From Candidatus Amesbacteria bacterium (GTDB lineage Bacteria > Patescibacteriota > Microgenomatia > CAZETR01 > Amesbacteraceae): a stretch of 64,000 nucleotides of DNA. The notes below the pieces were generated by a model. That model did no database searches. It was not told where the DNA came from and was given only the letters and a program-made list of their open reading frames with translations. The position numbers were made by a program, and so were the translations under genes. How positions within the stretch are numbered: the stretch's first letter is position 1; every line of letters starts with the position of its first letter. Of the stretch, positions 4,097-51,870 are shown piece by piece. Where the stretch lies: positions 199,927 through 263,926 of the forward strand of contig CAVTQH010000002.1 in assembly GCA_963736875.1 (NCBI GenBank), given 5' to 3'.

Positions 4097-4488
4097 GCCG
4101 ATATGCTAACACACTTGGTCAAAACCGGCAATCAAGATATAATTTACCCCGATGACGGCAATTTGGGGATTGTTTTTAATTTTGCTTATTTGGTTACTGA
4201 TATTAAGTTATTTTGTCTTCCGTTGGCATCGTCATTCACGCCGTTCATCTTCACCGGTTTCTTCATCCGGATTCCGTTTCAGCCTTCTTCGCTTCAATCC
4301 TTTTTCCGATACCGGGGGAGAGCAGAGTTTTGTTCTCTCTTTACTTGATGGGGGGGGAAATGGCATACTACTTACCAGTTTGCATGGACGGGGGACCACC
4401 CGCTTTTATGCCAAGAGGGTAATTGCCGGTAAAACCGACCAGGAACTCTCAGCTGAAGAAAAGAAAGCTCTTTCGGAAGCACTCAATC

Positions 4489-10100: not shown

Positions 10101-10127
10101 ACTGCTAAAATTGTAACATGCTCAAAG

Positions 10128-14954: not shown

Positions 14955-15194
14955 ATGGGAATATTTAATTTGCTGGGTTTAATCCGCCGGATACTGTTTT
15001 TTTCCATTCTTTTATCTCTGGCCTGGAAATTGTCTTCAATGATAGTTCTTCCCGCTTCTTCCCCGGCACCTTTACCCGTAAATCTTGCCCCGGTGGCTTT
15101 ACCGGATCATCCGGTACCGGAAATTAACCGCCAAAAATGTTTTTATTATCGACCGGGCCTCCCGGACGGTGCTGATGGCCAAAAATGCCGATGA
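14955..15194 (+). other. orphan signal-peptide ORF, probable displaced N-terminus of the downstream carboxypeptidase (needs a +1 shift near 15120-15135)
   Basis: MGIFNLLGLIRRILFFSILLSLAWKLSS...PVPEI is read in frame 0. The carboxypeptidase homology (TAKNVFIIDRAS...) continues in frame 1. The junction lies in ccaaaaatgttttta. Confidence 0.35.
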
Positions 15195-15855
15195 CCGGAT
15201 TTATCCTGCTTCCACCACCAAGATGATGACTGCCATCGTCTCTTACGAAAAATATTCTCTTCACGAGCCTCTGGAAGTCAGCCGCTCCTACCCCGAAGGG
15301 ACAACTATCCATCTCCAGCCGGGAGAACAGGTAACAGTGGAAAATCTGCTTTACGCCATGCTTGTCCAATCAGCAAACGATGCTGCCGAAGTTCTGGCGG
15401 CAGCCTACCCGTCAGGCAGGGAAGTTTTTATAAATGAGATGAATGCTAAAGCCGATGCCATGCATTTATTTAATACCCGTTTTCAAAATCCCACCGGCCT
15501 TGACCAGGAAGGCCATTTCTCCTCGGCAGCCGATCTGGCCCGCCTGGCTGATTATCTGCTTCAGTCTCCGTATTTAGCCAAAATTGTAGCTACCCAGAAC
15601 GCAGTCATTGCCTCGGCCGATTATTCCTCTTTTCATCCGTTATCAAATATCAATAGTCTGTTGGGAAATATTACCGGGGTATTGGGTGTAAAAACCGGAT
15701 TTACCGACAAGGCAGGGGAATCCCTGGTTACCTTAGTCAGCCGGGACGGTCACGAAGTGATAATTTCCCTTTTGGGCAGCACCGACCGTTTTACCGACAC
15801 CACCAACCTGATTGAATGGATCTATTCGGCTTTTACCTGGCCTCGTCAGAAGTAA
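15085..15855 (+). CDS. D-alanyl-D-alanine carboxypeptidase (peptidase S11, PBP5/6-like)
   Basis: SxxK (ASTTKMMT), SxN (SANDAA) and KTG (KTGFT) are present. The TTG start at 15085 leaves no signal peptide, see the previous feature. Confidence 0.7.
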   Translation: MPRWLYRIIRYRKLTAKNVFIIDRASRTVLMAKNADDRIYPASTTKMMTAIVSYEKYSLHEPLEVSRSYPEGTTIHLQPGEQVTVENLLYAMLVQSANDAAEVLAAAYPSGREVFINEMNAKADAMHLFNTRFQNPTGLDQEGHFSSAADLARLADYLLQSPYLAKIVATQNAVIASADYSSFHPLSNINSLLGNITGVLGVKTGFTDKAGESLVTLVSRDGHEVIISLLGSTDRFTDTTNLIEWIYSAFTWPRQK

Positions 15856-16912
15856 ACTGCGTACCAACAGCCTGAACGTAAGCTGTAAATCCGGCATCAC
15901 CCTCAAATACGTAAACCGGCTGTAAAAACGCCTGTTGTTCATTTGACTCAAAATAAGCCAGGCTCACTCTTCTTACCGTCACCTGATTTTCGGTCGTTCT
16001 CTTGGCAATAAATCCTCCCCCGTCCACCAATTCTTTCCACGCTTCGCTCACCGGTCTTAAGGGGTAGGTGGCAAAATCGTCACCCAAAGTCTGAGAATAA
16101 TAATAATTGGCCTGGACTATTTGTTTATCCCCGGATAATCCGGAAACAATCACATTAACAGGCGACGTTTCCCCTCCCACAGTAACTATTTTCATTGTCA
16201 ATTTTTCCCCGGTCGGTAATTCCTCATTCTTTTCCGCCCGGTATAAATCTACCCTGGTGAAATTAGCTTCATAAGGAGAAATCTCCGGCAGCATTGCCGA
16301 AGACGTTGCCGATAGGTAAATAATCCGGCTGGTGCCGTTGGCAATGTCTTCAGGCAGTACCCCGAGCCTTTCCAGAAATCTCTTGGCATTAGAAACAGCT
16401 TCATTTCCTATCGGTACGTCCTGGACAAAATAGTTGCTCCGGTCTGTCGTCCAATCGTATTTGTATGATAATCCGCCGGTAATTACGTCAAATATCATAT
16501 CAATCGGTAATTTCGGACTGGAAAATCTGTACGTTCTCTCATCCAGTTGAATCGGTTCGTTTGAAAGCCCCACCGATCTGGCTTTCTCCGTCATCCTCTC
16601 CAGTATTAAAAGCCGTGATTTGTTTATTCCCACGGGGTATACCTTACTGACATTCGGCATGGCAGGCAAAGCCCCGGTAATTGTTTCCAGCTTGTATTCC
16701 GGAGTGGCAAAATTAGGCGCTTCCGGAAAAATAAGTTTCGGCAGTTTGCCGTATTTGACCGTGGGCGGAGGGGGAGGAGGCGGATTTAAAGTCAGATACA
16801 CTCTTCTCATTAAAGCCATTATTCCGGGTATCAACGCCATAATCACCAGTGCCACCAGTCCCCACTTGATTATTTTCCTGGCTAATACGCTTACTTCCGT
16901 CAGGGTTGCCAT
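15833..16912 (-). CDS. membrane-anchored hypothetical protein with poly-Pro linker
   Basis: An N-terminal TM (LVALVIMALIPGIMAL) is followed by PPPPPPPP and a ~300-aa extracytoplasmic domain. No family recognised. Confidence 0.35.
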   Translation of the reverse strand: MATLTEVSVLARKIIKWGLVALVIMALIPGIMALMRRVYLTLNPPPPPPPTVKYGKLPKLIFPEAPNFATPEYKLETITGALPAMPNVSKVYPVGINKSRLLILERMTEKARSVGLSNEPIQLDERTYRFSSPKLPIDMIFDVITGGLSYKYDWTTDRSNYFVQDVPIGNEAVSNAKRFLERLGVLPEDIANGTSRIIYLSATSSAMLPEISPYEANFTRVDLYRAEKNEELPTGEKLTMKIVTVGGETSPVNVIVSGLSGDKQIVQANYYYSQTLGDDFATYPLRPVSEAWKELVDGGGFIAKRTTENQVTVRRVSLAYFESNEQQAFLQPVYVFEGDAGFTAYVQAVGTQFTSDEAR

Positions 16913-16930
16913 GTTAAAATTTATTTTATC

Positions 16931-17977
16931 ATGGTTCGCACGCGTTTTGCCCCTTCTCCCACGGGTTTTTTACATATCGGCAGTTTGCGGACTGCTCTTT
17001 ACTCTTTCACACTGGCTAAAAGCTCCCAAGGTCAGTTTTTATTAAGGATAGAAGACACGGACCAAAAAAGGGAGGTCAAAGGAGCGGTTGAAAGTATTTA
17101 TAATAGTCTCAATAAATTCGGAATTTCCTGGGACGAACCGCCGGTTATCCAAAGCCAAAGAGCCCGGGAGGGGGTTTATATCGGGGCGGCGGAAAAACTG
17201 GTACAGCAGGGTCAGGCCTTTTATTGTCAATGCGAAGCCAGAAATGCCAAAATCCAGGGATTCAGCGGGATTCTTCGCGACCCCTGCCGGGACAAAAATT
17301 TGTCGCACGGCGCAATTAAACTCCGGGTTCCGGACGATCAGAAAGTCTCTTATCATGATTTTGTTTTGGACAGGGAAATTATCTGGGACACCAATACGGT
17401 TGCCGATGCCACCCTGCTTAAATCCGAATCCATGGGGCGGTTACCCACGTATCATCTGGCGGTGGTGGTGGATGACGTATTCATGCGCATATCCCATGCT
17501 CTCCGCGGCCACGACTGGCTTCCCAGCACCCCGATACATCTTTTAGTTTATAAATTTCTGGGATTTGAGTGTCCGGAAATCGGACATCTGACTGATATCC
17601 AATCATCCAAAGGAGGAAAACTATCCAAAAGAAAAGATTCCGTATTCTGTGAGAAGTTTTTGGATGACGGATATCTGCCTGAAGCCCTCTTAAATTTTGT
17701 CATGCTTTTAGGCTGGGCACCAAAGGATAACCGGGAAATGTATACTCTGTCGGAATTTGTCCAGTTTTTTGATCCTAAAGGATTTCAAAAATCAAATCCG
17801 TTATTTCTTCCGGCCAAACTTGACTGGTTTAACGGTCAGTATATCAGACAGAAATCGGATACAGAACTTATTCAGCTCGTGAAACCATACATGAAAAGTC
17901 AAATAACGGACATAATACTTACCCGAATAATGCCTTTAATCAAGGACAGAATAGTAAAACTTAACGGACATAAATAA
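16931..17977 (+). CDS. gltX: glutamyl-tRNA synthetase, catalytic core (348 aa; C-terminal domain disrupted, see next feature)
   Basis: RFAPSPTGFLHIGSLRTALYSF (HIGH), KLSKR (KMSKS) and a Cys cluster CQC...C. It stops at the TAA at 17975 inside the region homologous to GluRS 'LLWLNHHYI...'. Confidence 0.7.
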   Translation: MVRTRFAPSPTGFLHIGSLRTALYSFTLAKSSQGQFLLRIEDTDQKREVKGAVESIYNSLNKFGISWDEPPVIQSQRAREGVYIGAAEKLVQQGQAFYCQCEARNAKIQGFSGILRDPCRDKNLSHGAIKLRVPDDQKVSYHDFVLDREIIWDTNTVADATLLKSESMGRLPTYHLAVVVDDVFMRISHALRGHDWLPSTPIHLLVYKFLGFECPEIGHLTDIQSSKGGKLSKRKDSVFCEKFLDDGYLPEALLNFVMLLGWAPKDNREMYTLSEFVQFFDPKGFQKSNPLFLPAKLDWFNGQYIRQKSDTELIQLVKPYMKSQITDIILTRIMPLIKDRIVKLNGHK

Positions 17978-18298
17978 TTTACTGTCGCCTTTTATATCAG
18001 CTACCGGAAGATATCCGGCCGGAATTATATGCTTCAAACCCGGAAGTCATTTAGTCTCGGTATTTGAAACTATTAAAGCACAGTGATTTTACCAATTCGG
18101 AATCTTTAAATTCGGAATTCAAAAAGGAAATTGACAGGCTGAATATTAAAACCGGAGACTACTTTATGAACATGCGGGTAGCTTTAATGGGTTCCCGTTC
18201 CACCCCTCCCGATTACCGAATCGGCGGTAATTTTGGGTAAAGAGGAGTCACTGCGAAGAATTAATAACGCTCTTGAAATGCTAAGCATTAAACAATGA
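17974..18298 (+). pseudogene. gltX: disrupted 3' part of gltX encoding the anticodon-binding domain
   Basis: GluRS C-terminal homology (LPEDIRPELY..., IKTGDYFMNMRVALMGSRSTPP, ITESAVILGKEESLRRINNALEML) is readable only across frames: frame 2 to 1 near 17975, an in-frame TAG at 18052-18054, then frame 1 to 2 near 18210. Confidence 0.5.
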
Positions 18299-19224: not shown

Positions 19225-19562
19225 GTAAAATATTTTACGATCATTTGGTTATCAGAGAGGAAATTGATTTCGAGCTTAACCGCTTTCAAATCGATCCCGA
19301 GGAGCAGGAAGAATTAATAAGTCTGATCGATCAGACTCTCCATCACCATATTTTAAACGTCATCTTAAATCACTTGCCCAAAGAAAAGCATACAGAGTTT
19401 ATTTCCCGGCTTCATGCCAAGCCGGATGATGATACCCTGATTGATTATTTAAAAACTCATGCCCACCCTGAAATTGAAGCCGAAATCAAAAAACAAGCCG
19501 CCAAGATCAAAAAAGAAATCCTGGCTGATCTCAAAAAATCCTCCCGCCGTACTAAATCTTAG
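19221..19562 (+). CDS. hypothetical protein, 113 aa, acidic/helical
   Basis: ORF only. Confidence 0.25.
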   Translation: MSKIFYDHLVIREEIDFELNRFQIDPEEQEELISLIDQTLHHHILNVILNHLPKEKHTEFISRLHAKPDDDTLIDYLKTHAHPEIEAEIKKQAAKIKKEILADLKKSSRRTKS

Positions 19563-21684
19563 CTTTTTTCAAAAGCAGGGAATTGGTAATCACCGAGACT
19601 GAAGATAATGCCATAATAAGTCCCGCCAGCTCCGGTTTGAGTATCAGTCCCCAAGGAGCCAACACTCCGGCGGCAATCGGAATTCCCAAAACGTTATAAA
19701 TCAGGGCAAAAAACAAATTTTCCCTGATTTTATTCATGGTTTTTCTGGACAAATTAATAGCCGCCGTGACATCACCGGGATCATTTTTAACCAATACCAC
19801 TTCCCCGCTTTCGATTGCCACATCGGTTCCCGATCCCATGGTAATTCCCAGATCGGCAGCAGCCAGTGCCGGCGCATCATTTATCCCGTCACCTACCATG
19901 GCCACGGTTTTGCCGGCTGCCTGAAGCTTCCTGATTTCCCCGGTTTTGTTTTCCGGTAATACTTCAGCTAACACGTTTTCTATTCCCAGCCCGGAAGCTA
20001 CTGCTCTGACCGTTTTCTCGTTGTCGCCGCTTAAAAGCCACACGTCCATACCCAGGCGTTTCAGCCTTTTAATCGCATTATTGCTTTCCGCTCTCACTTT
20101 ATCCGCAACTGCGATAAGTCCCAGCATCTTTTTATCTTTGGCCAGAATAACAGCGGTCTTGCCTTCATTTTCCCATTTTCCCGTCTCTTTCCCGGTGAAT
20201 TTAATATGATTTTCCGCCATCATTTTTTTGTTTCCCAGAAAATACTTTACCCCCCTGATCCTCCCCGTCACTCCCTGCCCGGGTATGGCTGTAAAATCGT
20301 CAACATCTTCAATTTTCAATCCGCCTGATTTGGCCTTTTCGTAAATACATTTAGCCACGGGATGTTCAGAATTTCGTTCCAGACTTCCCGCCAGCTCGTA
20401 ACACCTCCGGAGAGGAAATATCGGTTACTTCCAGTTTTCCCTCGGTTAAGGTTCCGGTTTTATCAAAAACCACGGTATCGATTTTTCCCGCTTTTTCCAA
20501 AGCTTCCCCGCCTTTAATTAAAATGCCGTGAGTAGCTCCCAATCCCGTCCCTACCATAATGGCCGTGGGGGTGGCCAGCCCCAAAGCACACGGGCAGGCG
20601 ATTACTATCACCGAAACCATTGCCAGGACGGCATATGTCAATGATGCCTGCAAAACCACATACCACACTCCGAATGTAACTAAGGCAACAATTAACACCG
20701 CCGGTACAAACCAGCCCGATACCCGGTCCGCCAGATTCTGGATCGGGGCTTTTGTCTCCTGGGCTTCTTCAATTAATTTGCTGATTCGCGCTATTGTCGT
20801 TTGTTCTCCCACTCTGGTCACTCTGATTTCAATTACCCCCATCTGATTTATCGTTCCTCCGGACAACTTTGTCTCCCTCTTTTTTATCAACAGGCAGGCT
20901 TTCACCTGAAAGCATCGACTCGTTTACCGCCGTCTGTCCCCGGATTATTTCCCCGTCAATGGGGATTGTTTGCCCGGGCCTGACCAAAACCATATCCCCG
21001 ATTTTTAATTTTTCCGTTTCCGTCTCGGTTTCCTGACCGTTTCTGATCACAGTGGCGGTTTTAGGCTGAAGCTGCCCCAATTTCCTGATTGCCTCCGAGG
21101 TTTTTCCTTTGGCCCTGGCTTCCAGCCATTTGCCCAAAAGCACAAAAGTGATTAATAAAGCCGAAGTTTCAAAATAGGTAGCCTCTTTCCCCCAAATTAA
21201 ATTTATGACGCTGAATCCGTAGGCTACCGACGTGCCGATGGCGATTAGTGAATCCATATTAAAAGACTTTGACCGCAAGTGCCGACCATGCCCCCCGGTA
21301 AAATCTTCTGCCCAAAATAAACTGTACGGGAGTGGCCAGGATCCACCCCAAAAAAGGCGGAAGCATCATAATCGGTGCGGACAATATTCCCGCCCAAATA
21401 AATCTTTTTTTATACTCCCGTATTTCCGTTTCCTTCCCTATTTCTCTTTCAGCGCCGCTCCCCGCGATTTCAATTTTTGCCCCGTATCCCGCTTTTTCCA
21501 CCGCTTCCACCAGCTGTCCGGCCAAAACTTGGTTTTCGGCAATCACTCTGGCCTTTTCCGTCGCATAATTTACGTTTGCTTCCGTCACTCCGGGGATTTT
21601 TCTCAGACTTCTTTGAATCAAAAGTGCACATGATGTGCAGTCCATGCCCGTGATTTCCAGATTTACCTGCTTTTTCCCAGTCAT
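19552..21684 (-). pseudogene. copA: copper-translocating P1B-type ATPase CopA, split into four ORFs by three frameshifts
   Basis: The pieces are 21259-21684 (HMA GMDCTSCA plus TM1-2), 20829-21278 (A domain), 20366-20905 (CPC, DKTGTLT) and 19552-20358 (GDGINDAP, C-terminal TMs). Each junction needs a 1-nt shift: ...ALAVK|SFNMD, ...DKV|SGGTINQ and ...EVTD...|ELAGSLERNSEHP. Confidence 0.7.
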
Positions 21685-21950
21685 TTTTCTTCAAACACCT
21701 TCATTACTTCGGCAATCGCCCTGTCGCGCTCTTCGGGCGTTCCCTTGACGGAGTCGGCGACACAGGTCTTGAGGTGGTTTTCCAAAATCAAGGCATCCAC
21801 TTTTTTCAAAGCCGCCTGTACGGCCTGGGACTGAGTGAGAATATCGATGCAGTAATCACCTTTTTCCACCATCTCAATCACTCTCTCCAAATGTCCTCTT
21901 ACAATTTTTAACCGGTGTTCCACACCTCCTCTGCTATCCGTGGTCCTCAT
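21681..21950 (-). CDS. csoR: CsoR/RcnR-family metal-sensing repressor (copper-sensitive operon repressor)
   Basis: An 89-aa DUF156 fold carrying the C-H-C ligand set (YCIDIL..., HLKTC). It sits immediately upstream of the copA remnant with a 4-nt overlap. Confidence 0.7.
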   Translation of the reverse strand: MRTTDSRGGVEHRLKIVRGHLERVIEMVEKGDYCIDILTQSQAVQAALKKVDALILENHLKTCVADSVKGTPEERDRAIAEVMKVFEEK

Positions 21951-21982
21951 AACTTATATTGTAATCCCCCCAGGGGGGATTG

Positions 21983-23839
21983 TCAACCTGCTCCTCCGCC
22001 CCCGCCCCCGCCCCCGCCCCCGCCTCCCCCGGAAAAACCTCCGCCTCCGCCTACTCCGGAAGCTCCGAAGTTGGAAAAACCCGAAGATATTGCCGAAAAT
22101 CCGTTAAACATCGAAGAAAATGAGCCGGAGAAATCCCCTGAACCGCCGCCGCTGCCGTAAAATCCCGTATATAGTCCGGAGCCGGCGAAAGCCGCTGAAA
22201 AGTTAACCGGTAATTGTGCCAGAGCCTTCAGAGACAGTCCCAAAGCCGCTCCGTAAACCAGGTACCTCTCCCACAAAATTACGGAATCAATAGGGTTATT
22301 TTTAGTCACACTGTAATCCTTCAGGTATTTTTTAAAAGCTCTCCACGAAGCCAGCTCCTGATTCCCCGTGTCGGTTCTTTTATTGATAGCTACTCTGAGA
22401 ATTTTCATCACAATACCTGCAATTCCGCTCATAACTACCAGGCCAAAGAGCAACCAGCCAAAACCGCTTATTCTGTCTGCCACCTGGATCAAAAACCACC
22501 CGACGATTATCGCAGCGAAAATATAAATATCATCTTCCTTATCGATTTTTAATGAAGCTTCATAACTTTTCGGCTCCAGTAAGCCAGAGTCTACCAGATG
22601 TTTGGCACAATCCTTTTGCCAGGTTTTCCAAAATGCCTTGGCCTCTTTCGGTTTAGTTCTTCCGATATTTTTTACGCTGTCCAGGGATAATATATTGCTT
22701 TCGGAAAACAGGAAATCAATCAGTTCGGTTTCCAAAACAGACAATCCTGTCCGGCTTGTTTTGGTATCCAAAATCAGCAGAAATCTGTCTTTTTGGGGGA
22801 ATATCCCCAGGATCGGCTCCTGTTTCTCTTTTGAAATAGTTATCACCTTCTTACGTATCAGATCAATGATTGTCGCGGTAATCGCCTTACCGGTCGGTTT
22901 CAGATTCCAGGAAAGCAGGGTTTCCACCGAGCCCGGATCCAGGTCTGAAGGCGGTTCGTGCAGTGTTCCGGCCAGATTAACTGAAGGAATTGGTTTATCC
23001 CGGCCGATTCTCCACCACCGGATAATCCAGTAACACACCCGGGATATCATCAGTAAACTTATTCCCGCTGCCGCAGCCAGTAAAAGCATATCCCCCAGGC
23101 CCTGAATAATTCCCTGCTGCCGGGTTTCGTCGCCGAACTTTGTCTCTTCATTCAGTATTTCCTGCAGGGTTTGACTGCTTGTTCTGGGCATCCGCTCATC
23201 TGATTTGGGATACAACACTCTGACTTCAAACATTTTCTTTGGCGGCAGAGCCGAAGCGGAAAATTCTGCCTCCTGATTGGTCGATATGGTTACTTTTCCG
23301 TTTAATGGTCCGTGTCCGAAAGCCCATATTTTATCTTCCGGAGCCGGATAGGGGAGCAATACTTTAGCCGTGACCTCCCCGCTGCCTTTCTCCCATTTAT
23401 TGCCGATCAGCTGCCAGTAAAATTCCCGGATATCGGGGTGATCGGCAACCGCATTTTCCAGAGTGTACCTGATGGTAAATATCTTGGTGGTATTTACGGC
23501 CGAGTAAAACCATTTAAGATACAAACGGTCTGTCTCATTAGTTTTCTCAAACCGGAGCGGCCCCTTTTCATCAGTGATTTGGATATTATCAATGACGTAA
23601 TTGGAGCAAGTTGTGGCTTTGACGCATTTTCCCGTCAGATTTATCCACATATCCGCCCAGGAAAACGACCCGTCAAATTTATATGTTCTTTCCTCGGTTA
23701 TCAGTGCTTCCCCGCTTTTCTCCAGATTAACTGTAAAATCCGCCCGGGTAATCGTATAATCCTTGGCTTGAGCCCTGACAGGCTGCCAAATCGCTGCCAA
23801 AAAAAGTATCAGTATGATTGCTTTCAGCTTCATACACAA
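21983..23839 (-). CDS. DUF2207-family membrane protein with C-terminal poly-glycine tail
   Basis: A signal peptide, a ~190-aa extracytoplasmic domain, TM helices and a Gly-rich tail (GGGGGFSGGGGGGGGGGGGGAG) characteristic of DUF2207. Confidence 0.5.
   Translation of the reverse strand: MCMKLKAIILILFLAAIWQPVRAQAKDYTITRADFTVNLEKSGEALITEERTYKFDGSFSWADMWINLTGKCVKATTCSNYVIDNIQITDEKGPLRFEKTNETDRLYLKWFYSAVNTTKIFTIRYTLENAVADHPDIREFYWQLIGNKWEKGSGEVTAKVLLPYPAPEDKIWAFGHGPLNGKVTISTNQEAEFSASALPPKKMFEVRVLYPKSDERMPRTSSQTLQEILNEETKFGDETRQQGIIQGLGDMLLLAAAAGISLLMISRVCYWIIRWWRIGRDKPIPSVNLAGTLHEPPSDLDPGSVETLLSWNLKPTGKAITATIIDLIRKKVITISKEKQEPILGIFPQKDRFLLILDTKTSRTGLSVLETELIDFLFSESNILSLDSVKNIGRTKPKEAKAFWKTWQKDCAKHLVDSGLLEPKSYEASLKIDKEDDIYIFAAIIVGWFLIQVADRISGFGWLLFGLVVMSGIAGIVMKILRVAINKRTDTGNQELASWRAFKKYLKDYSVTKNNPIDSVILWERYLVYGAALGLSLKALAQLPVNFSAAFAGSGLYTGFYGSGGGSGDFSGSFSSMFNGFSAISSGFSNFGASGVGGGGGFSGGGGGGGGGGGGGAG
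21985..22030. repeat. (GGGGGC)n hexanucleotide repeat (~5 units) encoding the poly-Gly tail
   Basis: The + strand reads ccgcccccgcccccgcccccgcccccgcc. Confidence 0.6.
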
Positions 23840-23870
23840 TTTATTATAATCTGGTTTAAGCCCGAAGTTT

Positions 23871-24476
23871 ATGTACGAAGTTATTTTCGATCTGGAAACA
23901 CAGAATTGGTTTGACGAAACCGGTACAACTAATCCGGGAGATCTGAAAGTGTCCGTTGTTTCTCTCTACACCCGGGTGCTTGACGCGGATCTCAAAGAAA
24001 CAAAAGGGGAAATGTTAAGTTTTTGGGAACATGAGCTGGAGAAAATGTGGAAATATTTCCGGCAGGCAAACCGGATTATCGGCTTTAATTCAATTAATTT
24101 TGATGTACCGGTTCTTAAGTCCTATGCCCCGGCCGATTTTTCCGGGCTTCCCCACTTTGATATATTAAATCACGTCAAAGAAGCTTTTGGTCGCCGAATT
24201 TCTTTAAACCGGATTGCCAAAGATACTTTGGGTCAAACAAAAATCGATTCCGGGGCCAATGCCGTCAAATACTGGCGGAAAGGTGATCGGGAAAGCCTGG
24301 CCAAGCTCAAAAAATACTGCGAAGCGGATGTCACTATCACCCGGGACATTTATGATCATGGTTTGCACCACCGGCACCTGCGTTTTACCGATCACTGGAA
24401 TAATCCCCGTCTAATTGCCGTTGATTTTTCCTACCCCGAAAAAGACTCTTCTTCCGCCCAGCCCAGTTTGTTTTGA
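23871..24476 (+). CDS. RNase H-like fold 3'-5' exonuclease (YprB/PolB-exo-like, DEDD)
   Basis: VIFDLETQNWFD, IIGFNSINFDVPVL and YCEADVTITRDIY mark a DEDDy-type exonuclease. Confidence 0.5.
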   Translation: MYEVIFDLETQNWFDETGTTNPGDLKVSVVSLYTRVLDADLKETKGEMLSFWEHELEKMWKYFRQANRIIGFNSINFDVPVLKSYAPADFSGLPHFDILNHVKEAFGRRISLNRIAKDTLGQTKIDSGANAVKYWRKGDRESLAKLKKYCEADVTITRDIYDHGLHHRHLRFTDHWNNPRLIAVDFSYPEKDSSSAQPSLF

Positions 24477-25054
24477 TCTTTGATTATTACTGGTTTTTGA
24501 AGCAGAGTTTATAATCACAAACAATGGTGGACAAGCACCCCAGGGTGTATCGAGGCAGCGAGCGGCATATTTAGACGATCTTTATAAAAAGGCGATAAAT
24601 GGAGATTTTGAGCGGGAGGAGAGTTATCCAAAATTGCCGGGTGGATTTCCCTGGCCAGGGAGTTGGTCATAAAAATGGATAAGTGCTACCGGATCTGTCA
24701 GCGTAAAACCGGTCACCGATTTAAGGCAACAGGTTGAATTTAAAAGAGACAATATTTTACATTATGCATCCGCTGCCGCTGTCGGGCTAGATTACGGCAA
24801 ATCGGAGTAGCTGCTGAATGGGAAATGCCGCCTGCCGGTTCTACAATCGAGGAATTTCCCGTAATGCCTGTTTCCGAAGCAGCCGCGTTAATACACACTG
24901 CCCGGCAATTAAATAAAAGAGGCGGCGGAGTTCGGTTGGAAGATTGGTCGCACGCCGATCAGGAAAGGTTGTTAAGGGGAGAGAAACCCAAAGGAGTTCC
25001 GACACATAGAATTTATAGCGAGGCGGTCGGAAATGCTAGTATTTATATTGTCGC

Positions 25055-27475: not shown

Positions 27476-27627
27476 ATACTAATACAAATTTCCCGACAGC
27501 AGTTTTTTCAAGGAAAAAACTGTAAAACCTGGTAAATAATTTCATATGTCCCAATACTAGATCCGTTCCCCGAAATAATCCGTATCTTTTCTCACCGACA
27601 ATTCGTAATGCTTTTCACAAAAGAAGT

Positions 27628-29997: not shown

Positions 29998-30062
29998 GAT
30001 ATTTTTGTGATTATATCTTATCCGATAACCGTCAGAATTCTAACTTACGGTCTCTGTTCGGA

Positions 30063-30533
30063 TTATCTTCTTCCTCGTCGTATAGGTCCCACCAGCTTAT
30101 TTTTCAATTCTGCCGCCGGGCTTTTAATTATAAATCCGGTATTTTCGGGTAACCTGAACAGGTTATACCAGGCAACACCGGTAAATCTATCCGGATCAAC
30201 GGATATTGGACCGAGCATTTCCTTGTTTATCAGTGATATGGCAATATTTTGGACCAGATAATAACCCGTATCACTGGTAAATCCTTTGTCATCTTTTAGA
30301 TCTGTTCTTGGTCGCGGGTACAGTAATTTAATATTTTCGTCTGTAAGGCCTAACTGTTCCTGCAGAATTTGCCATGCACTCAGAAGCAGTGTGCGATAGT
30401 CGTGCAACACCTTCGGTCTGTGCATTTCTCCGGGAACCGTTAATGTACCGTCAACTTGACTCAAAAACAGCAGATCCGCCCCGGATGTATGCAGGTATAT
30501 CTGCAAACCCCTGTTTAATTCGCTGGAATTCAT
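30063..30533 (-). CDS. hypothetical protein, 156 aa
   Basis: ORF only. Confidence 0.25.
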   Translation of the reverse strand: MNSSELNRGLQIYLHTSGADLLFLSQVDGTLTVPGEMHRPKVLHDYRTLLLSAWQILQEQLGLTDENIKLLYPRPRTDLKDDKGFTSDTGYYLVQNIAISLINKEMLGPISVDPDRFTGVAWYNLFRLPENTGFIIKSPAAELKNKLVGPIRRGRR

Positions 30534-30637
30534 CGTGTGGCCATTGTATCAAGTTCAGTCAAGAGCTTTGGTGTTGAAGCTGCTCCCTTTTAAAAATGCC
30601 CGGCTTCATCCGGAAAAAATTTTAGTATACTGAAAGT

Positions 30638-33154
30638 ATGTCTCTGACTGCCACCATCGCATCTCTTTCCGGTTTATCGGGTACCGAAGCCCAAAATCGT
30701 CTGAAAAAGGAAGGTTACAACGAACTCCCTTCCCAAAAAAGCCACTCCTGGCTGGATATTTTGTTAAGCGTTTTCAAAGAACCCATGATTTTTCTTTTGG
30801 TGTTTACGGGTCTGATATATCTGTTTTTGGGTGAAGTCCCGGATGCATTAATGCTTCTGGGCGGGATTTTTATCGTCATCGGCATCACTTTTTTTCAGGA
30901 GCGCAAAACCGAGCGGGCTCTGGACGCTTTAAAAAATTTAAGCAGTCCCCGGGCTTTGGTTTTAAGAGACGGTCAGGAAATGCGGATTCCCGGCCGGGAA
31001 GTGGTGCGCGAAGATCTGATAGCCCTTCAGGAAGGGGACCGCATTCCCGCCGACGGTACCGTTCTTTCCTCCACCAACTTAAGCATTGATGAATCTCTTC
31101 TGACCGGTGAATCCCTGCCGGTTCGAAAAATAGACTGGAATAATCAGGCGGATTCAGTCCGGCCCGGAGGGGAAAACCTCCCCTATGTTTTTTCCGGGAC
31201 TTTGGTTACTCAGGGAAGGGCAATAGTCCGGGTTACCGCCACCGGTATCAAAACTGAAATGGGAAAAATCGGCAAATCACTGGAAACAATTCATGAAGAA
31301 GACACCCTGATTAAAAAAGAAACAGGCCAAATTATTAAAAAGTTTGCTTTAGCCGGACTGATTTTATGTCTGACGGTAGTAATTCTTTTCGGTTTAATCC
31401 GGGGTGACTGGATTCAGGGCTTGTTATCAGGTCTGACTTTATCCATCTCCATGCTGCCGGAAGAATTCGCGGTTATTCTGGTGGTATTTCTTACTCTCGG
31501 AGCCTGGCGTATGTCCAAATACCAGGTGCTTACCCGAAACACTGCTACCATCGAGACTTTAGGGGCAGCCACGGCTCTTTGTGTGGACAAAACCGGCACC
31601 ATCACCTTAAATCAGATTACTCTCGACGGATTATTAACCGACGGTGACTATTTTCCCTTTCCGCAATCCGACGGTCATATCCCCGACAAATTTCACTCTT
31701 TGCTTGATTATGCCATCCTTGCCAGCCAGCAGGATCCTTTCGATCCCCTGGAAAAAGCCATCAGAAAGGCCGGAAAGCAAATTCTTACTGAGTCGGAGCA
31801 CGACCATCACAATTGGAGACTGGTCCAGGAATATCCCCTGTCCCAAAAATTAATGTCTTTGTCCCACGTCTGGCAATCACCGGACTCAAAGCACTTTGTC
31901 GTTGCCGCCAAAGGGGCTCCGGAAGCAATTGCCGGGCTTTGCCGCCTGACCGGGGACGAGAAAGCCCGTCTGGAATCGCAAATTGACCGGCTGGCAAACA
32001 GGGGTTTGCGTTTAATCGGGGTTGCCAAAGCCTCCTTTCCCGGGGAAAAACTGCCGTCAAAACAGCAGGACTTTAACTTTGAATTTTTAGGCCTGATGGC
32101 CTTTACCGATCCTGTCAGGCCGGGAGTGGCGGCAGCTGTCCGGGAATGTTATACGGCAGGCCTTAGGGTGATTATGATCACCGGGGATTATCCGGGAACG
32201 GCTCAATACGTGGCCGGTCAGATCGGACTTAAAAATCCCGACCAGGTGATTACCGGCGGTGAGTTATCCGAATTATCACAGGAGGCAATCAGGGAGAAAA
32301 TAAAGACAACCAATATTTTCGCCCGGGTGGTCCCCGAACAAAAGCTGATTATTATTGATGCCCTCAAAGCAAATGGTGAAATTGTGGCCATGACCGGGGA
32401 CGGGGTTAATGATGCTCCGGCTCTCAAGGCAGCTCATATCGGCATTGCCATGGGTAAAAGGGGTACGGATGTAGCCCGGGAATCCTCGGATCTGGTTTTA
32501 TTGGATGACGATTTTTCCTCCATTGTGACGGCCGTCCGTACAGGCCGCCGGATTTTCGATAATCTCAAAAAGGCTGTTGTTTATATTTTTGCAGTCCATG
32601 CTCCCATCGCCGGAATTTCTTTACTGCCGATAATTTTTAACTGGCCGATGGTCCTTTTACCTGCCCATATCGCCTTTCTGGAACTGATCATCGATCCGGC
32701 CTGCTCCCTGGTTTTTGAATCGGAAGTGCCGGAATCTGACATTATGAGCCGTCCCCCGCGTCCTTTAAATTCCTCACTGTTTACCAAAAAAAGCATTATC
32801 ACCGGCTTGGTTCAGGGATTGAGTATTTTGATTTTTGTTTCTGCTGTTTATATTTATGCCATCACAAGCGGCCGCGGAGATACTTTCTCCAGGACCATCA
32901 CCTTTGCCACTTTGGTTTTTTCCAACCTGCTTTTGATTCTTACCAATCTCTCCTGGTCCCGGAATATTTTTAAGACTCTCATCGGCCGTAACCGGGCATT
33001 GTACTGGGTTCTGGGAATGGCCGCCTCGGGCTTGCTGATTATTCTCCGTTCCCCGGCTGTCAGCTCTCTCTTTCACTTTTCTCCCCTGACTGGAGTGACT
33101 TACTTCTGGCATTTGCCGCCGGACTTATCGGCGTCATTTGGTTCGAAGTTCTGA
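30638..33154 (+). CDS. cation-transporting P-type ATPase, P2 (Ca2+-ATPase-like)
   Basis: CVDKTGTITLNQ, MITGDYPGTA, MTGDGVNDAPALKAAHIGIAMG and a 10-TM topology. Confidence 0.75.
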   Translation: MSLTATIASLSGLSGTEAQNRLKKEGYNELPSQKSHSWLDILLSVFKEPMIFLLVFTGLIYLFLGEVPDALMLLGGIFIVIGITFFQERKTERALDALKNLSSPRALVLRDGQEMRIPGREVVREDLIALQEGDRIPADGTVLSSTNLSIDESLLTGESLPVRKIDWNNQADSVRPGGENLPYVFSGTLVTQGRAIVRVTATGIKTEMGKIGKSLETIHEEDTLIKKETGQIIKKFALAGLILCLTVVILFGLIRGDWIQGLLSGLTLSISMLPEEFAVILVVFLTLGAWRMSKYQVLTRNTATIETLGAATALCVDKTGTITLNQITLDGLLTDGDYFPFPQSDGHIPDKFHSLLDYAILASQQDPFDPLEKAIRKAGKQILTESEHDHHNWRLVQEYPLSQKLMSLSHVWQSPDSKHFVVAAKGAPEAIAGLCRLTGDEKARLESQIDRLANRGLRLIGVAKASFPGEKLPSKQQDFNFEFLGLMAFTDPVRPGVAAAVRECYTAGLRVIMITGDYPGTAQYVAGQIGLKNPDQVITGGELSELSQEAIREKIKTTNIFARVVPEQKLIIIDALKANGEIVAMTGDGVNDAPALKAAHIGIAMGKRGTDVARESSDLVLLDDDFSSIVTAVRTGRRIFDNLKKAVVYIFAVHAPIAGISLLPIIFNWPMVLLPAHIAFLELIIDPACSLVFESEVPESDIMSRPPRPLNSSLFTKKSIITGLVQGLSILIFVSAVYIYAITSGRGDTFSRTITFATLVFSNLLLILTNLSWSRNIFKTLIGRNRALYWVLGMAASGLLIILRSPAVSSLFHFSPLTGVTYFWHLPPDLSASFGSKF

Positions 33155-33181
33155 AAATGCTTCATTTGAAAATTGCCTAGT

Positions 33182-33721
33182 CTATTTCTTATACTTCAAA
33201 AGATTTTCCGTAATATCCACAAATTCAATCCCCTTGGGTACTTCAAATACGGTTTCATCCAATTGCCAGTGGGCACAATTTACTTCATTCTCACCGCTAA
33301 GTTTTGCATACGATCCAAGAATTGATTCGGCTGAAGTTGCAGATCCGGTTGCGGTCAGCTGATTCAATTCTATTTTCAGACCCCGGCCGAGTGACGTCCA
33401 GATATACGCCTGCTTACCGTCTGAAATTATATGGCTGACGGATGTATTTCCGTTGCTTCTTGTTTGAATATCCATCCTGAACCGGTTTTTGGAAATTAAT
33501 ATGTTTCCAAAACTGCCTTCATTTTGGGTCTCTTTAATGGTAGAGGTGCAGGTGACATCATCTCCGGATTTTAAAGCTTCTGACAATACCCCGCCCTTAA
33601 TTATCTCGTCCGGGGGTAACGTGTTTATTTTTGGCGGACTTGGTTTGGGCCAGGTGAGTATCAGAGCCAAAATTCCCGACAATATCACCCCGCCCACAAT
33701 TGACAATTTCTTTTTTTTCAT
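33182..33721 (-). CDS. secreted hypothetical protein (signal peptide, 179 aa)
   Basis: MKKKKLSIVGGVILSGILALILT signal anchor. No family recognised. Confidence 0.3.
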   Translation of the reverse strand: MKKKKLSIVGGVILSGILALILTWPKPSPPKINTLPPDEIIKGGVLSEALKSGDDVTCTSTIKETQNEGSFGNILISKNRFRMDIQTRSNGNTSVSHIISDGKQAYIWTSLGRGLKIELNQLTATGSATSAESILGSYAKLSGENEVNCAHWQLDETVFEVPKGIEFVDITENLLKYKK

Positions 33722-33749
33722 TCCGCCTTTACTTTATCAGAAAATACCG

Positions 33750-34589
33750 TCAAAGGCTGAATCCTTTTTTGGCAGTCATTACTAATACATGTCCCCATCG
33801 GGATTTGCGCCGGTGGTATTTAACGCTGTTTAATCCTAAAAAACCGGTTATTTCCCGGCCGTACGGAAAAAACCACCAGCCCGCTACCGGATTGTGGCAA
33901 TAAGTCACAATCCGTGTCACACCGGCTCGTTTGGCCAGATCCGCGAGTCTTCCGGCTGACAGGTCATCCTCAAAACCGAATGCCCATTTGTTCCGCCGGA
34001 TAAGTATCTGTTTGGCCACCATAAACGGAATATCCCCGGAGTTGGGAGCCGCGATTACCAATATTCCTCCCGGCTTGACCAGCCGCCACATGATTTTGAT
34101 CATCTCAATTTTCCTGTCATCGGAAAAATGTTCAATCACCCCGCCGTTCCAGACCACGTCAAAAAATTTCCCGGGAAATTTCATGGAAAATGCATCCCGG
34201 CAATAAAATTTCGCTTTCAGTTTTTTTAATTTGAAGTATTTTTTTTGGAAAGCCAATGCTTTCTTCGAGATATCTACCAGATACAACTCCGCTCCCAAGC
34301 CGGCCAGATATGCCGAGGCCATTCCTGTACCGCTTCCCACTTCCAGAATTTTCTTTCCCTTTAAATTTTTTCCCATCACCTCTTCCAATTCTTCAAAATG
34401 GGCAATATAGTCAGGATTTGCATCAGCCTCGGAAGAATAACTTTCAGCAACTTTATCCCATAATTTTTCGGATTGCATACACCGATTGTACCAGTAACCT
34501 AAAGTTTGATAAAAAATATCCCGGTAATATAACTGGTCCCTTTCAGTAATCGGTTTCCGGTCAATATCCCTCCGTGGCTGTTTTCCCAA
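33750..34589 (-). CDS. class I SAM-dependent methyltransferase
   Basis: Motif I ILEVGSGTGMASAYL and post-I LYLVDIS. The true start is probably the internal M at ~34481 (MQSEKLW...), because the track ORF overlaps the Memo fragment. Confidence 0.6.
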   Translation of the reverse strand: MGKQPRRDIDRKPITERDQLYYRDIFYQTLGYWYNRCMQSEKLWDKVAESYSSEADANPDYIAHFEELEEVMGKNLKGKKILEVGSGTGMASAYLAGLGAELYLVDISKKALAFQKKYFKLKKLKAKFYCRDAFSMKFPGKFFDVVWNGGVIEHFSDDRKIEMIKIMWRLVKPGGILVIAAPNSGDIPFMVAKQILIRRNKWAFGFEDDLSAGRLADLAKRAGVTRIVTYCHNPVAGWWFFPYGREITGFLGLNSVKYHRRKSRWGHVLVMTAKKGFSL

Positions 34590-34990
34590 AGTTCCCAGTC
34601 AGTAGTTCCCAGTTTCTCCATGATCATCATTACCGTGGCCATCGCCGCCGGCGAATCCAGGTGGTTATCGTCGAACTTATACAAATTCAGGTAATCAAAA
34701 TTCCTGATGGTATTTATGGTCTGACTGTCATACTTTTCAGCCGGTTCAGGCAAATTATTATGGGAAAAATCCACACTCGCCACATATAAAGTGTTCTCCG
34801 GCATGATCTTGATGATAGCTTCAGCCATCCGCTTCAGAGTCTCCGGGGTATAACCGGGAGCGGTTAATATCGGCACAAATTCAGACCCGGTAAAAGCCTG
34901 TTTTAAATATTTTATGGGAACATTCACTCCGTGTTCATCACCAACCAGTTTGTCATCAATTACCAGTTGGCGGGAACTGCTGATTTAAGC
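34499..34990 (-). pseudogene. MEMO1-family (AmmeMemoRadiSam protein B-like) C-terminal two-thirds; N-terminal part missing or decayed
   Basis: ...LVIDDKLVGDEHGVNVPIKYL..., YVASVDFSHNN (DxSH) and NSHGGIL align with the C-terminal half of the intact Memo domain encoded at 35294-36904. The reading frame closes with a TAA at ~34990 and no Memo N-terminal motifs lie upstream in frame. Confidence 0.4.
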
Positions 34991-35293
34991 TGCAATACCG
35001 ATTTCCGGGCGATCGGGTAGTCGGGACTGCTTTCGGCCGTGGTGAACGTCCCGCCCCGCATCCGGAAATGGTTAGGGGAAAAAACTACAATAAACCGGGG
35101 ATTCTGGTTAATTTTATTTTATTGACGGCTCTGATGATTAAATCTTTTGCCAATTCGTGATGGGGAAGCACCACACCGCTGATACTCTGCCGGTTGCCCG
35201 GGATAACTTTATCAACCCTCAGCTCCCTGATTCCCAGGAAAACTGTCACTATAACTAAAATTAAAATCTTTTTCCGCATGGATAATACCGGGT

Positions 35294-36904
35294 TTAAAAA
35301 ACCTGGGCTTGATAAATATAAATTTCGGTTTCGGGATCCTGATAGCAATTTTTGGAAAGCCCCGCTTTCTGACTGCAAAGCTCCCCTAAAAATTCTTCCA
35401 AGCTCCATCCGGTGTCGGTAGCGACCTGCGGCAGAAATGTTCCCGAGCGGTTTCCCGAAACGATTACCACCCCGTCTGTTCCTAACCTGATCTGCTTCCA
35501 GTCACCGATTTTTTGTCTGGGGGTCATCACGGAAATTTCCAAAGTAATTTGAGAAAGTTCGGAAGCCGTAACCGGAGTAAACCGGGGGTCATTAGAAGCC
35601 GCATCCGCGGTTTTTTGCTGAATTACTTTATAAAGGGGTTCGTTGGGTTCAAACTCGCCGATGCACCCCCTCAGATCCCCGTTTTTTCTCAAAGTCACAA
35701 AAGCTCCCAGGGGATCATTCAATTCCGGATTTCTGACCGTGATTTCCCCGGGTAATTTTTTATCAGTGACAAAATCAGAAAGCGTCAGACGGGCAATTTC
35801 CAGCGCTTCTTTTTTGGCTTCCGGGGAAATTTCAGAAACAGCAAACTTCACCGTTGCGCCGGTAAAACCTATGGCCGCGTATCCCACCACCCGGTTTTTA
35901 TCGGATGTTACATCCCCGCTGTTTTGGTATTTCAGAAGTTTCGGAGGATCAAGTTTTAAAAGCTGCGAAACTTCCAAGGCCACTCTCAAAGCCTGAAAAC
36001 CGCAGGCCGGCGTTTCCACCCCGGGTTGTCTGACTGCGGTATTTTCTGCCATTTTTTTTTCAAACTCCGCTCTGCCGGCGGTTAATATTGCCTCTATCGT
36101 TTTTCCGTCAACAAGTTTGGCGGTATTGTAATCCGGGTAGTGGGACAAATCCGTGCTCACAACCAGAAGCGTTTTCTCATCCGTGTTTTGGGCGATTCGA
36201 AAAGCCAGAGCCGAAATTAATTGATCCGACGGCGTGCTCACCAAAATCGGAACAATTTTAAAATTATTAAGCACTTTTTGCAGCCATATAATTTCAGTTT
36301 CCAGCGAATGTTCTTTTTCATGTACTGTGGTATCGGCAATAATTTTCTGATCAGGGCTGATTATTTTTTGGGCCAGGTCGGTATCAATTTCTGCATTACC
36401 CAAAGGGGTTTCCCACACGCCTCCGGCAAACACCGCTGCGTGGTCGAAGCGGTGTTGATGGCTGGATCCCAGAATAATCACCCTGCCGAAATCGCTTCCT
36501 GCAATTTGTGCATAAGCCTCTGCTGCCGCTCTCCCGGAATAATCCAGTCCGGCATGGGGGACAATCAGTATCCGGAAAGCGCTGTCAGCGGAAATCTTTC
36601 GGGCTTGGGCAAGAAGGTTTTCGAGTTTGTTATCCAGCTCTTTAGTGTCTTTCGGGTAAAAAGTTCCTGCTGCTGCCGGTTTCCGGACGGAATCGGCTCC
36701 GGAAGTGCCGGCACTTGCCTGATTGCCTCCCGGCGGATTCGGACTGCGCCAGGCCAAAATCCCGATTATCAAAACCATGCCCAGCGTTATCCCCAATGCG
36801 GTCAGGACGGGATTTCTGAAATTTATTTTCATTCTGACTGTATTATAATCATAGCCGGTGAAGAAAATTTTAATGGTATTTTTGATACTGATTCTTCTGG
36901 GCAT
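35294..36904 (-). CDS. membrane-anchored MEMO1-like + AMMECR1 fusion protein (AmmeMemoRadiSam proteins B+A fused)
   Basis: N-terminal TM; Memo motifs AGTFYP, VPHAGLDYSG, LGSSH and VSTDLSHY; C-terminal AMMECR1 (LRGCIGEFEP...). Confidence 0.65.
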   Translation of the reverse strand: MPRRISIKNTIKIFFTGYDYNTVRMKINFRNPVLTALGITLGMVLIIGILAWRSPNPPGGNQASAGTSGADSVRKPAAAGTFYPKDTKELDNKLENLLAQARKISADSAFRILIVPHAGLDYSGRAAAEAYAQIAGSDFGRVIILGSSHQHRFDHAAVFAGGVWETPLGNAEIDTDLAQKIISPDQKIIADTTVHEKEHSLETEIIWLQKVLNNFKIVPILVSTPSDQLISALAFRIAQNTDEKTLLVVSTDLSHYPDYNTAKLVDGKTIEAILTAGRAEFEKKMAENTAVRQPGVETPACGFQALRVALEVSQLLKLDPPKLLKYQNSGDVTSDKNRVVGYAAIGFTGATVKFAVSEISPEAKKEALEIARLTLSDFVTDKKLPGEITVRNPELNDPLGAFVTLRKNGDLRGCIGEFEPNEPLYKVIQQKTADAASNDPRFTPVTASELSQITLEISVMTPRQKIGDWKQIRLGTDGVVIVSGNRSGTFLPQVATDTGWSLEEFLGELCSQKAGLSKNCYQDPETEIYIYQAQVF

Positions 36905-37595
36905 TTTGGCTATAGTTCTGGTTCTGGGCTACTTTGGTTTTTTCCCGGGAGTTTCAGCTCTTTTCGGGTCGAACCGGCCGCGTGATTTAGGTGTGAAGTA
37001 TTCTCAGGCAGACTACGTGTCTTATCAGCAAAAATCCGGTTCGGAAACTATTCCCCTGACCGCAGTAGCTGAGGCTGGTAAATCCCTGAATTTTTCAGGC
37101 CAAAAAGATCTTACTGCCTCATTCAGCGAAACCGAAGTCAGCGCCCGGATCAGTCATTCTCTCTGGCGGTATATGCCCTTTACCGATTTTCAGATCCGGT
37201 TCCCCGGGCAGAATTTAATTGAGTTTTCAGGCATATTGGCGACTGACCGCTTATCAGGTTTTATCTCCGAAGTCGGGGGAGTGGAAATTTCCCAGGCGGA
37301 TATCGATAAGGGTTTGAACTATTTAAAAATATTTTCTAAAAATACTCCGGTGTATGCCAAAGCCGAAGTCCGGGTTCAGGATAATAAAGTGGATATTCAA
37401 ATGCAGAAGCTGGAAATCGGCCGCATCCCGGTACCCTTGGAAAGTTGGAACGCCAGCTCATCATTTACCGATGCCGCTCAGGAAATAATTGACAAAGTTC
37501 CGGGCTTGGACGCCAAGTCGGTCACATTCGGGGACGGTAAAATGTCCTTTACCGGTACTGTACCGACACAGATTTCCGCCCTGATGGCTAACTGA
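36858..37595 (+). CDS. membrane-anchored hypothetical protein
   Basis: An N-terminal TM (MKKILMVFLILILLGILAIVLVLGYF) with a ~200-aa extracytoplasmic domain. Confidence 0.3.
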   Translation: MKKILMVFLILILLGILAIVLVLGYFGFFPGVSALFGSNRPRDLGVKYSQADYVSYQQKSGSETIPLTAVAEAGKSLNFSGQKDLTASFSETEVSARISHSLWRYMPFTDFQIRFPGQNLIEFSGILATDRLSGFISEVGGVEISQADIDKGLNYLKIFSKNTPVYAKAEVRVQDNKVDIQMQKLEIGRIPVPLESWNASSSFTDAAQEIIDKVPGLDAKSVTFGDGKMSFTGTVPTQISALMAN

Positions 37596-37635
37596 TTTTT
37601 AGAGTAAAATTCAATCTCCGAAGTAATAGTAATTT

Positions 37636-38611
37636 ATGAAAAAATTTCTCATTTTTATCGGTTTGATTTTTATTTCGGTTATAACCCTGTTAATCTTGGG
37701 TCGACATTATTTTGGCCCGCCGGGTAAATCCGTGGAACAGCAGATTTTTACCGTTCCCGAAAAACAGCCGGATTTTAACCCGGTGCAAAGTCTTTCGGAT
37801 CAGGGTTTTATCAAAAATAAATCCGCTTTTTCATTTTTAAAAGAAAAGTTCACCCCGGGAAAAGAGGTTAAACCCGGCGGCTACTATCTTAAGTCAGAAT
37901 ATGTTTGCCTGGCAGGTTCTGGAAAAAATTACCGGCAAACCGGATTTGTTATGGCTTACCGTCTCCGGTTGCCCCCGGAAAGAACAGATCGGGGAAAAGC
38001 TGGCGGATCTTCTGGGATGGACTTCAAAGGAAGTAAAAGACTGGAATTCGCTTTATTCTGATTTTAAATCCGAGTATTTTGAAGGAGTTTATTACCCCGA
38101 CACATATTTGATTCCGGTTACGGAGTCAGCGGGTCAGATTGCCCGGCGTTTTATCGACCGTTTCAACACAAAATTTGCTCCCCTGGCTGACAAGTTTGTA
38201 GAGGCCAATATCAAATGGACGACCGGAGTAAAAATTGCCTCTCTGATCGCCCGCGAAGCCGCGGGAGACAGCGACATGCGCCTTATAGCCGGCATTATCT
38301 GGAACCGGCTGGACCAGGGGATGCGCCTGCAGATTGACGCCACCATGCAGTACACTCTGGGAAAACGCTCCGACGGCAGCTGGTGGGGACCCGTTGATTT
38401 GAGCCAAAAACAAAGCGATTCTCCCTACAATACCTATTTATATGAGGGTCTTCCCCCGACCCCCATCTGCAGCCCGGATATCAGGTATCTGGAAGCGGTC
38501 ATAAATCCCGAAAGTACCGATTGCCTCTACTATCTGCACGATTCCGGGGGTCAGATCCATTGTGCCAAAACTTATGCCGGCCACAAATCCAATATCAGTA
38601 AATACTTATAG
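37636..38611 (+). pseudogene. mltG: endolytic murein transglycosylase MltG (YceG-like), interrupted by an apparent 1-nt frameshift near 37895-37905
   Basis: The N-terminal TM plus FTVPEKQ...KPGGYYLKSEY runs in frame 1 (ORF 37636-38061). It continues as MFAWQVLEKITGKPDLLWL...EGVYYPDTYLI...IASLIAREA...SPYNTYLYEGLPPTPICSP in frame 2 (ORF 37901-38611). The junction is gaatatgtttgcc. Confidence 0.6.
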
Positions 38612-46623: not shown

Positions 46624-46750
46624 ATAAAAGGGGATTATATACCTATGGGGCCAGCTGCAGGATATGATTAAAACCCTCGGTCCTGACGCTAAAATTGCCG
46701 ATATTCAGAATGCCGTTCGGGAACAAAGTAAAACAAGGCGCAGGAGATAA

Positions 46751-51818: not shown

Positions 51819-51870
51819 ATGTTTTTTAAATAGCGGTTATGGCCTTAAAATAGCCTTAAATTTCTTAATG

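Follow-up and report, generated by a model that had tools for sequence, protein, structure and literature searches.

Clustered single-base interruptions of conserved genes in a Candidatus Amesbacteria contig are very probably errors of assembly or consensus

Introduction

How can one short segment of a bacterial genome carry several recognizable genes in broken reading frames, side by side with very long open reading frames (ORFs) that read through without a stop? This question is raised by a 64-kb stretch of contig CAVTQH010000002.1 from a Candidatus Amesbacteria assembly (hereafter "the window," meaning the whole stretch analyzed), in which an earlier note, made from the DNA letters, had flagged positions 14955–38611. 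There, dacA, gltX, copA, a second Memo gene, mltG, and an AIG2-like gene were described as needing frame changes or stop read-through, and two readings were offered, namely that the genes are truly decaying in a reduced genome or that coverage is locally low. Our analysis suggests that the interruptions are very probably insertion and deletion (indel) errors of assembly or consensus, clustered locally. Of the two readings, the low-coverage one is thus supported if it is taken to mean a local error of assembly or consensus, whereas genuine gene decay is not supported.

The window has a G+C content of approximately 47% and appears to belong to an Amesbacteria-like genome of the candidate phyla radiation (CPR, or Patescibacteria). 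This assignment is based on an 806-amino-acid (aa) P-type ATPase (positions 25055–27475) that matches a Candidatus Amesbacteria metagenome-assembled genome (MAG) contig, L001, with 79% aa identity, and on the synteny of that contig with the window between 19.6 and 27.4 kb. Exact-sequence look-up placed the window proteins on one 441,639-bp NCBI/ENA contig, and the broken pieces of four genes are already deposited there as separate proteins (a 348-aa GltX, a 236-aa MltG, a 268-aa CopA, and a 142-aa Memo). Because these pieces are NCBI/ENA protein entries, the lesions belong to the deposited assembly and were not added later.

Materials and methods

The ORFs were scanned with Pfam and inspected in three-frame views, DNA alignments to relatives, and motif searches. 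The relatives for DNA alignment were taken from public metagenome assemblies and showed 80–95.5% nucleotide identity overall. They included L081 and L096 (ENA contigs with MEGAHIT-style names, 91.5% and 86%, respectively), L082 (a JGI contig, 86.6%), L093, L094, and L095 (80–84%), L098 (95.5% DNA identity across a 230-aa gene described below), and L097 (ENA ERZ25039461 contig_174720, with a Flye-style name, approximately 88%). Several strains at 84–95% identity were present in the related samples. A further indel-riddled relative, L092, was given little weight as support, because it is itself rich in deletions (the window has 201 extra bases in 3 kb). The lesions were mapped in DNA alignments, except for that in mltG, for which the evidence is at the protein level; the break in recJ was read from a three-frame view against the N-termini of L097 and L083.

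Interrupted genes and their intact relatives

We mapped 17 lesions in eight genes between 10.1 and 46.5 kb, comprising twelve insertions of one base, four deletions of one base, and one deletion of two bases (Table 1). Pfam matches and three-frame views confirmed the interruption of dacA, gltX, copA, the second Memo gene (Memo2), and mltG, and the lesions reached beyond the flagged range on both sides, into a recJ-like gene and a hypothetical gene of 230 aa. The sixth gene of the earlier note did not survive inspection: the ORFs scanned, which covered all sizeable ORFs and the gap ORFs, gave no GGACT or AIG2 match in Pfam, and a six-frame motif search found no convincing YGTL-type motif. An ORF that starts with ATG followed by A8 (33182–33721) is intact and has no Pfam match. 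Truncation had also been suspected in a DUF4446 gene with a G8 run (4152–4496), and this proved on inspection to be an intact short form.

TABLE 1 Genes of the window with mapped frame lesions and the evidence or intact relatives used for comparison
Gene	Coordinates	Strand	Lesions	Evidence or intact relatives
recJ-like (DHH/DHHA1/RecJ_OB)	10118–11696	+	+1 at ~10152, in the 12th codon	Pfam, alignment to L097
dacA (D-Ala-D-Ala carboxypeptidase, Peptidase_S11)	14955–15855	+	+1 at 15127, ATTA[A]CC	L082 (299 aa), L097 (310 aa)
gltX (glutamyl-tRNA synthetase)	16931–18298	+	Five private single-base lesions within 260 bp: +1 at 17961, +1 at 18002/3, -1 at 18048–50, +1 at 18080/1, +1 at 18211; net +3	L081, L082, L083 (453–454 aa)
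copA (Cu+ P-type ATPase, HMA domain)	19552–21684	-	Three +1 at 21268, 20863, 20394; four ORF pieces	L096/P0130 (710 aa, 90% aa identity), L001 (704 aa)
Ca2+-type P-type ATPase ("838-aa ORF")	30638–33179	+	-1 at ~33090	P0263 (847 aa)
Second Memo (AmmeMemoRadiSam protein B)	34499–35278	-	-1 at ~35113; +1 at 34978, 34968	P0122, P0123 (256–259 aa)
mltG (YceG-like endolytic transglycosylase)	37636–38611	+	+1 at ~37889–37891, CTT[A]AGT	P0256 (324 aa, same 90% cluster)
230-aa hypothetical gene	45931–46625	-	-1 at ~46472, adjoining a G run; -2 at ~46317, in ATATA; net -3	P0269 on L098 (230 aa, 95% aa identity over the matched stretch)

The lesions were compared with the corresponding positions of the relatives. 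In a four-way alignment of 2.8 kb, the window had five private indels and L097 had seven, and none was found in L081 or L082, which carried 111 and 246 private substitutions, respectively. All other DNA-mapped lesions of the window were absent from every aligned relative, including L082, L093–L096, and L098, and the genes were intact in the close relatives' contigs with MEGAHIT-style or JGI names. When the genes were set against those of sister genomes in this way, the proposed decay found no support, as all the lesions checked were private to this assembly and the relatives' genes were intact. Contig L097 showed the intact state at all the lesion sites of the window, and its own private insertions, each of one base, lay elsewhere (15923, 16121, 17078, 17635, 18259 [two], and 18442), with none of them in a long run; in this contig, which comes from an independent assembly, gltX is split into pieces of 61, 159, and 193 aa. 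Because two related strains "lose" gltX at different sites, and do so only in one kind of assembly, these results point to a technical error process. We infer that the window contig was made in the same way as the L097 assembly.

The gene affected most often was gltX, of which the window has a single copy. Its catalytic domain (16931–17977) is intact, and the anticodon-binding part (17961–18298) requires five frame corrections. The lesion cluster sits in the most strain-variable segment of the gene, and at two of its lesions (18002 and 18211), the window has the variant bases of both relatives in tandem. In dacA, the signal/transmembrane segment (14955–15126) occupies one frame and the Peptidase_S11 domain, starting at 15128, the next. 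The intact relative of mltG reads PGGYYINQNMFAWQ across the break. The corrected CopA aligned colinearly from end to end with the intact relative of 710 aa and retained the CPC, DKTGT, and GDGxND motifs.

Three of the interrupted genes look sound in a plain ORF list, which would hide their errors. In recJ, the break is masked by a later in-frame ATG at 10128, which gives a seemingly clean ORF of 522 aa. In the Ca2+-type ATPase, the frameshift falls 28 codons before the true stop (~33179), and the true C-terminus, WSDLLLAFAAGLIGVIWFEVLKMLHLKIA, lies in the next frame. In the 230-aa gene, 155 bp are out of frame between the two lesions. Consequently, the description of the very long ORFs as clean was borne out for the 806-aa and 1106-aa ORFs, each of which aligned in a single piece to a relative, but not for the 838-aa ATPase. 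The 789-aa ORF (27628–29997, minus strand) had only a weak spermidine-synthase-like domain in the middle of the protein (residues 303–422), and no close relative of it was recovered; an antisense ORF opposite to it (29492–29974) had a fairly high coding score.

Three P-type ATPases, namely CopA, the 806-aa Mg2+-type enzyme, and the approximately 847-aa Ca2+-type enzyme, are encoded within 14 kb (19552–33179), which makes a dense ion-transport neighborhood for a small genome, and copA is accompanied by the gene of a CsoR-type repressor (21681–21950). A Memo-AMMECR1 fusion (536 aa, 35294–36904, minus strand) lies directly upstream of the stand-alone second Memo gene; a metagenome scan with the fusion protein found only distant relatives (≤55%), none with an mltG neighbor. 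In L094, a uracil-DNA glycosylase gene (1305–2006 of that contig) stands between the second Memo gene and a methyltransferase gene. It is absent from the window at the corresponding place (34460–34554), which is a real difference in gene content between strains. In L098, genes of a type I restriction-modification system and AAA_15 genes lie upstream of the shared 230-aa gene.

Selection in the restored frames

Removal of the indels gave full-length GltX, CopA, and Memo2 proteins without an internal stop and with intact catalytic motifs; the stop read-through assumed in the earlier note is therefore not needed, and all the apparent stops result from indels. There were no nonsense substitutions in the corrected frames of these three genes (approximately 1,420 codons). 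Furthermore, the out-of-frame middle segments of Memo2 and the 230-aa gene still encode conserved protein in the shifted frame.

Downstream of the first break, the substitutions on the window branch were 12 synonymous to 7 nonsynonymous in gltX and 41 synonymous to 17 nonsynonymous in copA. The ratio in these two genes was indistinguishable from that of the intact relatives (Fisher P = 0.68) and departed strongly from neutrality (30% synonymous share; P = 2.5e-12). Thus, gltX and copA show no relaxation of selection beyond their breaks, and the substitution pattern in these two genes gives no backing to decay. In the 296 bp of gltX that contain the five indels, private substitutions numbered 12 in the window and 29 and 51 in the relatives. 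The decay of gltX is unlikely because drift long enough for five indels should have brought many more, and mostly nonsynonymous, substitutions.

Spectrum and clustering of the lesions

Insertions outnumbered deletions by 12 to 5 over all the lesions, and all but one (2 bp) were of 1 bp. Among the first 14 lesions mapped, the ratio was 11 to 3 (P = 0.001 versus a deletion-biased expectation). Indel mutation in bacteria is deletion-biased and is concentrated in homopolymers. In the window, the lesions lay in runs of approximately one to five bases or in no run at all, and none was found in a run longer than approximately five bases. The earlier note had placed one break at an A8 run and others at short homopolymers; however, approximately half of the lesions were in no run, and every run of at least eight bases in the flagged range was intact. 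These runs of 8–9 identical bases, at 29666, 33711, 34239, and 36052 (A8, T8, or T9), were all in frame within uninterrupted ORFs. Homopolymer-driven errors or slippage were ruled out as the cause, because the lesions avoid long runs and the long runs are intact. The homopolymer association expected for nanopore, 454, and Ion Torrent errors was likewise not seen, which counts against a pure homopolymer-error model and not against error itself.

The lesions occurred in patches at 15.1–21.3 kb, 33.1–37.9 kb, and 46.3–46.5 kb, with a single additional lesion at 10.15 kb, and the region of 21.3–33.0 kb was apparently clean. For 14 lesions placed at random over the flagged range, five within 260 bp had a P value of approximately 1e-4, and 200,000 simulations covering the full 64 kb never reached such clustering; the clustering therefore exceeds chance.

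Origin of the interruptions

We consider it very probable, from these sequence comparisons, that the interruptions are locally clustered indel errors of assembly or consensus, because the lesions are private, selection is unrelaxed, the spectrum is unnatural, the essential gene gltX is hit most, the same signature appears in L097, and the mechanism is documented. That an essential gene is the most heavily affected, with five lesions, points to an artifact. The comparisons gave private indels against colinear, in-frame relatives, and the same class of lesion recurs elsewhere in L097. Under this explanation, the consensus would have an extra base at 12 places, be one base short at four, and be two bases short at one. 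The most likely cause would be a long-read or otherwise error-prone consensus whose errors persisted in stretches of low coverage or in places where variants of co-occurring strains disturbed the alignment of reads. As a guess, low coverage, a mixture of strains, or incomplete polishing may lie behind this. Most probably, the living cell has intact dacA, gltX, copA, Memo2, mltG, and recJ genes, as well as intact genes for the two ATPases and the 230-aa protein.

Such errors have been described. In long-read assemblies, indels are the dominant error; they raise the pseudogene counts of MAGs and are a greater problem where coverage is low (PMC8103633). A second report describes indel errors in long-read assemblies that split genes and inflate pseudogene counts (PMC12007338). 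The window resembles these cases in that single-base indels fragment conserved genes, are private to one assembly, and are patchy (PMC8103633; PMC12007338). Unlike the typical nanopore profile of deletions in long homopolymers, the lesions of the window are dominated by insertions, and the long runs are clean. Nearby allelic variants can also bring indel errors into a collapsed consensus (PMC8445201), and the window is similar to that case in that the densest lesion cluster falls in the most strain-variable part of gltX, with the bases of both relatives in tandem at two of its lesions. However, that case concerns a diploid eukaryote, whereas the window is bacterial, and the association of the lesions with variability is weak here.

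Several points weigh against error as the full explanation. The errors were deduced from the assembled sequence and not observed in reads. The collections searched yielded no second assembly of the same strain, the closest relatives being 84–95% identical to the window, so that a very recent origin of the lesions in this lineage is conceivable. The textbook nanopore profile differs from the lesions found here, and these tend only weakly to sit in locally variable patches, which gives the idea of a strain mixture weak support. The window branch of Memo2, with 14 synonymous to 23 nonsynonymous substitutions, is less clearly under purifying selection, and both lesions of the 230-aa gene are deletions adjoining short runs or repeats, which could have a natural origin. 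Given the Memo2 ratio and the deletions in the 230-aa gene, a minority of the lesions may be real. A mixture of this kind, in which most of the interruptions are assembly errors and a few genes (for example, Memo2, copA, and the 230-aa gene) are truly inactivated, is nevertheless unlikely in our judgment. These three genes are not obviously essential, and the lesions of the 230-aa gene (-1 by the G run and -2 in ATATA) resemble natural slippage; however, the copA branch is clearly purifying (41:17), the shifted middle segments of Memo2 and the 230-aa gene still give conserved protein, and these lesions are no different in kind from those of gltX.

Genuine and very recent pseudogenization in a reduced CPR genome, with real frameshifts in genes that are being lost, would fit the fact that the breaks stand in the deposited sequence, and several genes have more than one lesion, as expected of a dead gene. 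Both copA and Memo2 are plausibly dispensable in a window with three P-type ATPases and two Memo genes, and the nonsynonymous share of Memo2 is somewhat raised on the window branch (14:23). The pseudogene-rich reductive genomes of Mycobacterium leprae, Sodalis, and Rickettsia similarly have frameshifted genes beside intact long ones, some of them multiply hit. In those genomes, selection is relaxed, nonsense substitutions and multi-base deletions occur, and the spectrum is biased toward deletions. None of these features was found in the window, and an essential aminoacyl-tRNA synthetase is among its "broken" genes. The mixed spectrum of a decaying genome was absent, and the lesions were not confined to dispensable genes, as gltX was hit five times and the other essential or core genes mltG, dacA, and recJ were hit too. 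We therefore regard pseudogenization as improbable in view of the unrelaxed selection in gltX and copA, the complete lack of nonsense substitutions, and the mere 12 private substitutions in the 296 bp of gltX with five indels. The excess of insertions and the avoidance of long homopolymers are, in addition, the reverse of bacterial mutation, and the same lesion type occurs at other sites in the Flye-style contig and in none of the MEGAHIT-style or JGI contigs.

Two further explanations would also leave the deposited sequence correct. A real, recent burst of non-homopolymer +1 insertions in this Amesbacteria lineage, arising for example from an error-prone polymerase or a repair defect, might have hit even gltX, with the cells surviving through a second copy, complementation by a host or partner, or population heterogeneity; we consider such a burst highly improbable. 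It is barely credible that the breaks are bridged in vivo by programmed frameshifting, transcriptional slippage, or an alternative genetic code. The conservation of the downstream frames is the sole point in favor of such recoding, whereas the close relatives are uninterrupted at every site, leaving no conserved shift site, and no slippery motif is common to the lesion sites. Five shifts in 260 bp of one gene do not match a known recoding pattern, the absence of in-frame stops after indel correction makes stop reassignment unnecessary, and the long ORFs of the window read cleanly with translation table 11.

Returning to assembly or consensus error as the preferred explanation, the broken frames are most probably not a feature of the organism, and the finding is an ordinary one that serves mainly as a warning about sequence quality. 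No fewer than eight genes within the 64 kb are either split or wrongly delimited, and this MAG would mislead metabolic reconstruction, completeness estimates, pseudogene counts, and any argument that the genes of a reduced CPR genome are decaying. The corrected readings recover intact GltX, CopA, DacA, MltG, Memo, and ATPase proteins. Were the lesions real, it would be remarkable for a free-standing genome to have lost an intact gltX, but the evidence points the opposite way.

Neighboring features of the window

ARAGORN found no tRNA or tmRNA genes in the 64-kb window. The only Rfam match at the gathering score was an RNase P RNA (2563–2827, plus strand), for which the archaeal model RF00373, and not a bacterial one, gave the highest score (88.8 bits against a gathering score of 84), although the genome is that of a CPR bacterium. 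A reduced form of the RNase P RNA in the CPR might account for this, as might indel errors in this gene too. The Asp/Asn-tRNA synthetase of the window has 450 aa (13587–14939), whereas its counterpart in L097 (5847–7727 of that contig) was predicted to have 626 aa, including an additional tRNA_edit domain (PF04073). Either a true fusion or the indel errors of L097 itself could explain the longer form.

An island of low G+C content (34–39%, versus approximately 47% elsewhere) extends from approximately 50000 to 56000. It contains genes for an AAA_15/AbiEii-like ATPase (50097–51818), a DUF3761 protein, a MazG-like protein, and a NERD nuclease-domain protein, together with a small HNH/Endonuclease VII-like ORF. 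The island looks like a horizontally acquired or defense-type region.

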